A stretch of 64,000 nucleotides of DNA from Raillietiella orientalis (taxonomy: Eukaryota): NCBI GenBank assembly GCA_036172245.1, contig JAYWIR010000045.1, positions 1,116,001 through 1,180,000 on the forward strand, written 5' to 3'. Positions 15,750-18,700 of the stretch are shown here, one piece after another (the first letter of the stretch is position 1; each line of letters opens with the position of its first letter). Position numbers and translations under genes: made by a program. The notes beneath the pieces are model-generated. The model did not search any database. It saw nothing but the letters and a program-made list of their open reading frames with translations, and was not told the origin of the DNA.

Positions 15750-18700
15750 ATGATCTTCATGCATTCACAATCTCAGAGAATTCAGAATATCAATTCCGAG
15801 TTTAATTTAAAATTGGGTACTCTGAATGCTGTTCAGCAGATTTCCACAATTGGTAATACATGTTTAGTAGAAGATTCTTACTGACAGCTTACAGGATTGG
15901 CTGAATTGGCTCATCGAGAATATCAGAATGGAGATTATGAAAATGCAGAGAAGCATTGTATGCAATTGTGGAGACAGGATCAAGGCAACACTGGTTTACT
16001 TTTGTTACTAAGTTCCATTAATTTTCAATGTCGGAAATTGGACAAGTGGGTTCAAACGAATTAAAATGTGTTCTATTCATGCTTGTTCAGATCTGCATAT
16101 TTTAGCACTTTAGCAATCAAGCAGAATCCTTTGTTGGCAGAGGCGTATTCCAACTTGGGAAATGTGTATAAGGAGAGACGTCAGCTCCAGGAAGCTTTGG
16201 ACAACTATCAGCATGCTGTTCGTTTGAAGCCTGATTTTATTGATGGATATATTAATTTAGCAGCAGCCTTAGTTGCTGCTGGTGACATGGAAGGTGCAGT
16301 GCAAGCCTATGTTTCTGCTTTGCATTATAATCCTGTAAGTCACTTTCGATGCCTTGCATAGTAGTTTCAGTATTGGTTTTTGTTTTATAGGACTTATATT
16401 GTGTCAGGAGTGACCTGGGCAATCTGTTGAAGGCCTTAGGAAGACTGGATGAAGCCAAGGTAACCGGAGGAGCAGATGCGCATGCATGTCCCCCATCCCT
16501 GTTTTTCTTTGGCATCTGATATCTTGCTGGGGGAGTTGCACTGAATTTTTCATTTGACAGCCCTTGATACATAGGGCAGCCAAGATATGTGCCTCCTGCG
16601 CTCGTGCATCTTAGCTTCTCACCAATATGGAGGAAGCTTAGACAGTGCTATGAAGCAACAACACATGTTGAATTCTTACTTAATATAGTTCAGCATGTGC
16701 TATTGCTGCGCCGCGTAGTTTTTGCGCATGATCCCCCCTGCGCTTTTCAGATGCTGGTGCTACTACAGTTGTTGCTGTTACCAATTTTACTTGCGCTACT
16801 TTGCTCTGGTCCTGGAAGGGGGTCCAGCATGATGTCATATGCCTTCCTTTCCTGGCCTTTACCCTCTCATGATTCCAGCTATATATGCGCATATTTTAGT
16901 GATCCTGGAAGGAGAGAAGTTCAAAATTGATTGTTTCAATCAAAGAAAACGCTGATTACATTTAATCTCTTCTCATACCCATTGCAGGCATCATGCATCC
17001 CAGAAGCAGGTCACTGATGTCATGGAGGCCTAACAGGGTTTGGGTTTTGCTATATCTTCCAGGTAAAGCATTTGGTGTGCCCCTTCATTATCCTGCAGTG
17101 TCAGGTTGGAAAATTCTGATTTTATTTATAGCGAAGTAATTAGGATGGCGCTTAATTGCGCTGGGGCGCCTTTTGCGTATTGCTTCTTGCGCATTTGTCG
17201 GCCTCCATAATGAGACATCTGGTTTATTAAAGTAAGGACACTATTTGCCTAGAGTAAGCTTATGGCAAACAAGAGCCAAGAAACTGTTTCATTATTAAAG
17301 CCACAGCGCCTTGCGGTTATTCAGGGAGCGCAACGGCTTTCCATTGCAGCATAGCGTTATTTGCAAGTTTTGAATATCACAGATACTCTTTATTCAAATT
17401 AGGCATGCTATCTGAAGGCAATCGAAACTCGTCCTGATTTTGCTGTTGCTTGGAGTAATTTGGGTTGTGTGTTTAATGCCCAAGGTGAAATTTGGCTTGC
17501 TATCCATCATTTTGAGAAAGCTGTGGCCCTAGATCCTAATTTTCTTGATGCTTATATTAATCTAGGAAATGTATTAAAAGAAGCAAGGATTTTTGATAGG
17601 TAAGTATCCCTATTCAAAAGTATATCAAAAAATTGCAGTATTTGTATAATAGACTATAATGAAACTCTCAACTGTAATTGGCGACGATTGAAAATTTCTT
17701 ATACCTATATAGGTTTTTGTGTATAGACTGGTCCTAATACAGCACGCAAGCATTACTTCGGCCTTCTTGCCATATTTTAAATTAGACAATTCGGATTTTC
17801 ATTTTTGAGTGCCATTTTTTAAGTTAAAAAAAAAATGCAATTCCCGATCTCAAATTTGGAGTATTGGAGGTGAAAATTCCTAATTTTTGTCAAATGGTAC
17901 ATTTATTCAATCAAAGAAGCAAGAGTTGCGTCAATCTGAAGATAGTTGTGCTTAAACATTGGCACATATGTTACTGTTGAGCCGACATGTGAGCGTGCTA
18001 AAGCCATCATTTAGGAAGCATCATGAAATGCTAGTTGTACTGTGTTTGGCTAGTCTGGTTTATGTCCACCTTTTTTTTTTTTTTTCTAATCATTGCATGT
18101 ACTTTTTGCGGATGCTTATGTGGTATGCGTGCTGCTTGCTTTCATATCATGTAAAGTTAAACTTTTCAATCACTCGTTGTGTGTTTTGCAGGTTTTCCTT
18201 ACTTTAATCACGAGTTAAATGAATTAATGCGATTTCAACCGGTATTTTACTCTGACTGTAATACTTCAAATGTTGAAAGAAGTCATCTTCATTGTTCAGC
18301 TTCTATGTTTGTTAAAGGATTTTAAAGCATTATAAATGATATATTTTGAACACTGTAGCCGTCACCTTTCGTTGTTCCCTTTGAATTCGACCTGCAGTTT
18401 CCTTCTTTGCAAGGAAATCGAGATAAGCATCGAAATCCTTTCGTGTGGTCTCTTCCACCGGAGAAAAAGAAAATCTGCAGAAACAGAAGCCTGCACGGCT
18501 TCTACAGACGTGGTTCAGCTGCTGTAATCATGCGCGTCTGTTGCTCCAGCATGATCGAAGTATTATCTCGCGCGCGTTTCGTATGCCTGCAGCATCCGAT
18601 TCTTGTTTTCCACCATAACGGATGTCATGCGTTATTGTTTACAGTTTCGTGTGGATAAATCCTGTTGAACGAACGCCCGCCGCTACCTCACGTACTCAGT

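Follow-up and report, generated by a model that had tools for sequence, protein, structure and literature searches.

The window, by which we mean the whole 64,000-nt stretch of DNA analysed here, carries an OGT gene on the + strand. From exon 2 to the stop codon the gene spans 15895..21618. Its joined frame runs from exon 2 for about 1020 aa without interruption and stops at 21618; upstream of that, exon 1 and the start codon are predictions. The gene is single copy, and its best full-length hits are arthropod OGTs (68-76%). In trees built from the C-terminal part of the OGT protein the animal falls among arthropods, and one run puts it inside the pancrustaceans (support 0.97). It sits on a long branch with no near relative, and its exact placement varied between runs.

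Eight introns interrupt the gene in the joined-frame model. Introns 1-4 lie at 15853-15894, 16046-16090, 16335-16390 and 16460-17402, and introns 5-8 at 17600-18891, 18982-19214, 19321-19369 and 20048-20094. Their sizes are 42, 45, 56, 943, 1292, 233, 49 and 47 nt, exactly as the original prediction had given them. The genomic background is compact: the genes for OGA (870 aa), a CDC27-like protein (801 aa) and an Scm-like protein (592 aa) have introns of 40-73 nt in a guided parse that limits intron size to 75 nt or less. With that limit in mind, the earlier description of an otherwise intron-compacted genome holds. Besides OGA, the genome encodes two DRY_EERY-domain genes (SWAP family).

Intron 4 (16460..17402, 943 nt) stands at the junction of the vertebrate detained intron. 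It follows exon 4 (16391..16459, DLYCVRSD...RLDEAK, phase-0 donor) and precedes exon 5 (17403..17599, 197 nt), whose skipping would shift the frame, so that RLDEAK is separated from ACYLK. The human junction is identical. In the supplement of PMC5588854, the spliced-mRNA primer NC1773 reads across AK/ACYL, and human OGT in the PDB contains a match to the peptide of exon 5. The shared junction with mammalian OGT intron 4, proposed earlier, is thereby confirmed. Length alone does not single out intron 4, because intron 5 (17600..18891, 1292 nt) is longer. We use intron 5, which is also single copy, as an internal control.

The acceptor of exon 5 (17383..17402) is weak. It ends in an in-frame TAG stop, hence exon 5 cannot be extended upstream in frame. 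We scored it with two splice matrices, a native one of 43 introns (37 hand-picked of 58 parsed, plus 6 from OGT) and a pooled one built on 102 introns that we inferred in the OGT genes of other animals. With the native matrix, the exon-5 acceptor falls in the 2nd percentile of 43 native acceptors, whereas the acceptor of a candidate exon inside intron 4 (exon A, discussed below) falls in the 74th. With the pooled matrix the gap is small (6.7 versus 7.4) and the exon-5 acceptor is middling (31st percentile). The earlier claim that the real acceptor is the weaker one is thus correct, clearly so by the native matrix and only narrowly by the pooled one. Exon-5 acceptors are weak across 42 loci as well (median 4.3 versus 7.1, P 2e-5, where loci are not independent).

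Conserved blocks, which the original prediction proposed to look for in relatives, did not appear: blastn, nhmmer and Smith-Waterman found no alignment between the window intron and the introns or cassettes of other invertebrates. Membership in a multicopy transposable-element family, named there as a counter-argument, is not seen either. In a search of the 210-Mb genome OGT, intron 4, its segment 16930-17280 and intron 5 each match one place, so they are not multicopy (the search skips very common words). No Rfam model matches intron 4, even with E values allowed up to 1. With no Rfam match and a single copy, we reject Rfam or repeat-family readings of the intron.

What intron 4 does have is a word. 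In a scan of all 4- to 6-mers, GCGC is its top 4-mer, with 13 copies against 3.1-3.3 expected, a count reached in 0 of 300 shuffles. None of 467 tiles of the same genome reaches its z of 6.1. Thirteen of the 24 CpG in intron 4 lie inside GCGC, compared with 4 of 46 in intron 5, where GCGC itself is near expectation (4 versus 3.1). The copies form two clusters. The 5' cluster (16478..16890) holds seven, at 16478, 16598, 16708, 16724, 16740, 16793 and 16887; the 3' cluster (17148..17331) holds six, at 17148, 17158, 17166, 17189, 17306 and 17328. Between them lies a GCGC-free gap (16891..17147) full of competing splice sites, with predicted acceptors before 16988, 17063 and 17132 and predicted donors after 17009, 17062, 17104 and 17135. 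We infer that this gap is the decoy zone.

The same word marks intron 4 elsewhere. The finding replicates in an independent set of 29 other loci, in which each species group is represented once and intron 4 is limited to its last 3 kb. Among the 1024 possible 5-mers, CGCGC, GCGCG and GCGCT rank highest. GCGC occurs 270 times against 111 expected and exceeds expectation in 28 of the 29 taxa, whereas control DNA from the same loci has 44 against 39.6 expected (24 paired loci, P 6e-7). In 1-kb bins the counts are 130 versus 70 inside intron 4 and 189 versus 234 outside, and the upstream flanks of OGT loci show no GCGC excess. The word is not a by-product of dinucleotide runs. Merged into runs, GCGC remains twofold in excess (216 versus 108 expected), and other alternating words reach 0.97-1.35-fold, CGCG 1.78. 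Where introns can be aligned in pairs, GCGC survives at a higher rate than other words, at 4/4, 8/8, 11/11, 6/9 and 4/24 sites (33 versus 20 expected, CMH P 4e-8). These are the five informative pairs of 11 aligned; three others re-use the same locus and three have no GCGC. Across 13 complete introns the copies per fifth are 22, 26, 10, 32 and 44, with the middle fifth depleted, and seven observed cassettes or partial inserts carry one GCGC in total, six of them none.

Intron 4 as a whole folds better than 20 shuffles (z -3.8), with a local z of -3.8 at 16600-16799. Across 12 loci local folding z-scores are small and mixed. We rejected the idea that the copies form long helices with each other, since their flanks show no excess complementarity (3.99 versus 4.11). 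YGCY is the Muscleblind-type motif, and a Muscleblind-type reading fails because YGCY words are not enriched. Intron 4 could also be an RBM4/Lark target; Lark has a GC-alternating in vitro motif. In the literature covered, which includes few subscription papers, we found no paper on the GC-alternating Lark motif or on GCGC at OGT intron 4. In flies, Lark mediates intron retention, according to the passages available of PMC6966827. The RBM4 CGG motif, as given in the accessible part of 10.1101/2020.03.30.017111, is not enriched (GCGG 92 versus 83, CCGG 70 versus 77).

To see intron 4 in other invertebrates we scanned metagenomes with the exon-5 peptide and sorted by hand the best 80 of 227 confirmed stretches. 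We call a contig RNA-like when its frame is open through the next junction and no other intron is found, a label inferred from the assembled letters alone. Some loci come from the same species and assemblies may be chimeric. Of these best 80 of 227 loci, 42 are RNA-like and 38 genomic or unclear. The 42 RNA-like contigs comprise 14 spliced at the 4/5 junction, 7 with the whole of intron 4 (L003, L004, L009, L019, L033, L061, L070), 4 with a cassette, 3 partial forms and 14 that begin inside the intron, 11 of which hold at least 100 nt of it. The cassettes measure 74, 145, 83 and 170 nt in L006, L013, L034 and L056, respectively; they introduce a stop in L006, L013 and L056 and a frameshift in L034. 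In the partial forms (L010, L047, L063), exon 4 is joined to an internal acceptor and the remainder of the intron is kept. The opposite pattern, exons 4 and 5 joined with intron 5 kept, occurs in 0 of the best 80 of 227. Intron 5 flanks the exon-5 query equally and is 0.9-3 kb long in several genomic loci.

Two pairs of spliced and retained contigs come from the same species (L011/L003 and L018/L019). They are 99.5-100% identical, and their 5' ends lie 15 and 3 nt apart. Over its full length, the cassette of L056 aligns to a segment bounded by AG and GT within intron 4 of the mite-like L074 (z 27.6). Intron 4 is the longest or second longest intron in 8 of the 9 genomic loci that contain it whole. 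In the tree, L018/L019 join Daphnia, L061 joins a hemipteran, and L056/L070/L074 join mites; L033, L034, L047 and L063 are placed outside the arthropods. L003-L015 look copepod-like, which is a guess, as the tree holds no named copepod. The genome of L057 has lost downstream introns, so that locus can mimic a transcript. There are also exceptions: L065 and L075 have no intron at the junction, that of L080 is 61 nt, and that of L076 is 510 nt with zero GCGC. The intron-4 module is not universal across the loci.

Which cassette, if any, is used in the window intron? The original prediction named a 75-nt poison exon, exon A (16988..17062). The segment exists as described, with AG/GT flanks and an in-frame TGA at 17015-17017, and it contains no GCGC. 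Its identity as a poison exon is so far unsupported. A pseudo-exon equal to or better than A arises in 100 of 500 dinucleotide shuffles with the pooled matrix and in 166 of 500 with the native matrix. It also arises in 38 of 134 tiles of the window, and intron 5 has an equal one. We do not count the in-frame stop as evidence, because 68% of 75-nt stretches of intron 4 contain a stop codon. With a chance-level score and an uninformative stop, exon A is possible but unremarkable.

Moreover, the donor of exon A has a second face, which the original prediction missed. The site at 17062/17063 is also the strongest acceptor of intron 4 (91st percentile of the native set). It belongs to a dual AG/GT module (17030..17068) with a branch-point-like CTAAC at 17030-17034, a U-rich tract and AG/GT at 17062/17063. 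Such a pairing of a good acceptor with an immediately adjoining good donor arises in 15 of 2000 shuffles, and dual sites at relaxed cut-offs occur in 8 of 31 other loci. Overall, intron 4 shows no enrichment of ACTAAY branch-point words (26 versus 25.5; other long introns 0 versus 5.6). The idea that two upstream CCTGGAAG copies mask the dual site finds no support in the pairing probabilities, and we discarded it. Recursive-splicing AG/GT sites occur in long Drosophila introns, and the site at 17062/17063 resembles them in being a good acceptor with an immediate good donor. The introns known to have recursive-splicing sites are far longer than this one of less than 1 kb.

An acceptor at 17063 would open a rival poison exon, exon B (17063..17253), of 169 nt with the donor after 17231 or 191 nt with the donor after 17253, both with in-frame stops. 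Short forms would run from 17063 to the predicted donors at 17104 or 17135. The working cassette may start at 17063 in one of these forms, with A being mostly its branch point and pyrimidine tract; this is a possible, if doubtful, account. In its favour, 17063 is the best acceptor of the intron, and the one CTAAY branch word that precedes a good acceptor belongs to it. With fixed cut-offs the branch-acceptor-donor module arises in 44 of 2000 shuffles and 3 of 144 tiles, and with the observed values in 2 of 2000 shuffles; both shuffle counts are post hoc, and the module was chosen after looking. Exon B has two donors 22 nt apart, and its size is near that of the human decoy (143-153 nt) and of the L013 and L056 cassettes (145 and 170 nt). 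However, its splice score alone is equalled in 29 of 500 shuffles, long B carries 4 GCGC while six of the seven observed cassettes or partial inserts carry none, and 75 nt is a normal cassette size, given the 74-nt cassette of L006. The gap in the GCGC pattern points the same way: it contains all of A and only the first 85 nt of B, which speaks for A or for a short form of B and restores part of the case for the original choice of A. Both exons are predictions, A at chance level and B a little above it. Exon A might be the cassette in use, with nearly an even chance, and the acceptor at 17063 might be in use with a chance somewhat short of even. The two are not exclusive.

A different question is whether the level of the unproductive forms responds to anything. 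Retention or poisoning could be fixed or set developmentally, with no O-GlcNAc response. In favour of this, the contigs show isoforms, not what triggers them, and retention in the fly gene sxc is altered by sertraline, with the intron not named in the passages available (PMC11765297). Nevertheless we consider a fixed or developmentally set level unlikely. In the accessible parts of the reports, the vertebrate intron at the same junction responds to O-GlcNAc (PMC5588854, PMC7261177), and fly OGT protein moves both ways when O-GlcNAc is manipulated: it is more than 8x higher in catalytically dead K872M larvae and drops with thiamet-G, a mechanism that the authors left unexplored (PMC11623933).

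Alternatively, intron 4 could be an ordinary long intron here and its cryptic exons chance pseudo-exons. The chance level of exon A, its uninformative stop, the lack of alignable conservation and the greater length of intron 5 all agree with this. What makes it improbable is the GCGC excess, which no own-genome tile equals and which orthologous introns have in common. The concentration of CpG in GCGC, so different from intron 5, argues in the same direction, as do the short introns of the OGA, CDC27-like and Scm-like genes.

Because GCGC is palindromic, it may also act as DNA. It would then provide transcription factor sites for an intronic enhancer, or for an internal promoter of a short OGT whose start would be marked by the contigs that begin inside intron 4 (14 RNA-like ones in the best 80 of 227). 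The 5-mer contexts of the word are nearly strand-symmetric, and spacings of 5 and 6 nt between GCGC copies are somewhat overrepresented (9 and 12 pairs versus about 4 at longer distances). We hold this to be quite improbable: seven contigs begin in exon 4 or upstream of it and continue across all of intron 4, cassettes exist, TGCGCT outnumbers AGCGCA by 32 to 16 (a post hoc strand bias), the upstream flanks of OGT lack the excess, and exon 5 has no possible in-frame extension here. Least probable is an unproductive route by exon-5 skipping, aided by a helix between 16466-16484 in intron 4 and 18529-18547 in intron 5: long introns on both sides, the weak acceptor and the strength of the helix (-34.1 kcal/mol, equalled in 2 of 300 shuffles and 1 of 90 tiles) speak for it, yet 11 other loci with both introns show no clear excess (best case 1 of 25 shuffles), so that the helix is not a common feature, and the locus search required exon 5, which makes skipped forms invisible either way.

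We therefore return to unproductive splicing at intron 4. Since retention and cassettes occur in other invertebrates and GCGC is common to their introns and the window intron, an unproductive-splicing module is likely here. The original prediction left it open whether such a module was kept or re-evolved at the same intron. Of the two, "kept" fits better, although no sequence aligns. That the window intron is retained or poisoned we regard as quite probable. That it is the arthropod counterpart of the vertebrate detained intron, including an O-GlcNAc feedback, seems to us somewhat more probable than the opposite. Membership in the OGT detained-intron class is unproven: the position agrees, and retention and cassette use are shown in other species only. 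Weighing on the other side are the chance-level exon A, the longer intron 5 with its equal pseudo-exon, the lack of alignment and the exceptions L065, L075, L080 and L076.

The module could work as follows. The cluster of cryptic splice sites in the GCGC-free middle (16891-17147, perhaps extending to the donors 17231/17253) would serve as a decoy exon. Early spliceosome assembly at the decoy would compete with the weak exon-5 acceptor. A fraction of the mRNA would then retain intron 4 or include a stop-containing cassette and yield no OGT. The GCGC copies scattered over both flanking half-introns may be bound by a regulator that decides how much of each form is made. High O-GlcNAc would most likely tip the outcome towards the unproductive forms, closing a negative feedback; the response of fly OGT protein lends the O-GlcNAc part indirect support (PMC11623933).

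Because GCGC links the window intron to its counterparts in other invertebrates, some of which can stay unspliced or contain a stop-codon mini-exon, the OGT intron-4 splicing switch probably arose long before the vertebrates. A bolder proposal, which we consider rather unlikely as a whole, is that OGT intron 4 has housed an O-GlcNAc splicing thermostat since ancestral animals and does so in arthropods and other invertebrates alike. The thermostat would persist without alignable sequence through GCGC clusters that flank a rapidly replaced decoy exon, with GCGC as the putative site of an O-GlcNAc-reading RNA-binding sensor, and it would explain the feedback on fly OGT protein. If arthropods keep the module, the unexplained adjustment of fly OGT (PMC11623933, in the portion available) gains a testable answer in a genetic model, and the module would clearly exemplify a splicing circuit in which position and motif density are conserved and alignable sequence is not. 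A conserved four-letter motif is also a direct handle for mutation and for pull-down; the accessible passages of PMC12017769 suggest that a second, RNA-binding protein mediates the action of SFSWAP.

Several known systems resemble this intron; in what follows each paper is represented by the passages available to us. Vertebrate OGA has detained introns around exon 11 (PMC7261177), and likewise OGT exon 5 lies here between two long introns and would shift the frame if skipped. Unlike vertebrate OGA, the OGA gene of this genome has 11 introns of 42-73 nt in the guided parse. Hence the reciprocal OGA module appears to be absent. The window intron is also similar to the decoy-exon retention class of SF3B1, ARGLU1, DDX39B and SNRNP70 (PMC6097662, PMC7373989), as a long intron with a predicted embedded cryptic exon and predicted alternative sites. 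That class, in contrast, is described in human cells.

The closest system is vertebrate OGT intron 4 (PMC5588854, PMC6097662, PMC7261177, PMC12017769). PMC5588854 reports its conservation to jawless fish and says that Drosophila OGT lacks an ISS-like element; descriptions of the detained-intron module are confined to vertebrates and jawless fish. In the literature that we covered, with few subscription papers, no account of a decoy in intron 4 of an invertebrate OGT turned up. The window intron differs from the vertebrate one in being much shorter (943 nt) and in having no ultraconserved block, as intron sequence does not align between arthropod groups. It also differs in its dispersed GCGC, a signature at OGT intron 4 that is new here and is not reported in the passages of the vertebrate detained-intron papers. 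The human decoy is 143-153 nt long, with two 3' and two 5' sites that are required for retention (PMC6097662, PMC12017769), and high O-GlcNAc promotes detention and poison inclusion in humans (PMC7261177). With this system the window intron shares the junction and its character as a long intron, and an internal stop cassette with several competing splice sites is predicted at 16988-17253. The retained, cassette and partly spliced forms of the vertebrate intron, finally, have their likeness in the RNA-like contigs of other invertebrates.

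The two long introns of OGT are partly complementary. At the start of intron 4 (window 16460-17402), positions 16466-16484 can pair with positions 18529-18547 of intron 5 (window 17600-18891) in a 19-nt helix of -34.1 kcal/mol, which 2 of 300 shuffles matched. If formed, this helix would loop out exon 5 (window 17403-17599). No counterpart of it was seen in 11 other loci. Separately, window 17226-17238 is a perfect 13-nt complement of 18196-18208. The first segment spans the candidate donor at 17231, which would end a rival 169-nt poison exon in intron 4. The second follows directly on the pseudo-acceptor that scores best in intron 5.

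Among OGT loci from metagenome contigs of other invertebrates, several share short conserved blocks inside intron 4. In three loci that we guess to be copepod-like (L002, L028 and L040; no named copepod is in the tree) the block consists of the branch word ACTAAT, a pyrimidine tract and an AG. In L048 and L067 a branch word is followed by a strong donor immediately before an AG. Two further copepod-like loci, L010 and L017, have 14 bases in common at an internal donor whose exon side is weak, and the cassette of L013 ends in the same two bases.

Other loci lack the signs of a vertebrate-type retention and decoy-exon module. OGT is intronless in L065, which lies in a 93-kb contig, and L075 has no intron at the exon 4/5 junction. 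Intron 4 is only 61 nt long in L080; in L076 it reaches 510 nt and does not contain GCGC, the word enriched in intron 4. The public Darwinula OGT protein (P0004) has 1751 aa, with a CDC23/APC8-like part preceding the OGT part. Because the counterparts of these two parts sit on separate contigs in the Raillietiella genome, this entry may represent two genes fused in the gene model.

A near-perfect inverted repeat of 84 nt (window 15349-15432) precedes the point where OGT coding sequence begins. It is single copy in a genome search, and its matches to miRNA models were all sub-threshold.

Most of OGT's neighbours in the window have short introns. From their translations we take these genes to encode an Scm-like MBT/SAM protein (38000-40092), a NUS1-like protein (44808-45239), an NF-YA-like protein (52100-53300), a mitochondrial carrier (54188-54565) and a P4-ATPase (59426-64000). 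Across 10-kb stretches of the genome (L082-L121) GC content ranges from 0.34 to 0.66, and the five compact genes that were parsed lie in AT-rich DNA.

The gene parse of OGA (L135, G000:C40:1359001-1369000), in which introns of up to 75 nt were allowed, may have read through one in-frame 48-nt intron. Compared with vertebrate OGA and its detained-intron module, no intron in this parse is long enough to hold such a module: the gene encodes 870 aa and is split by 11 introns of 42-73 nt.
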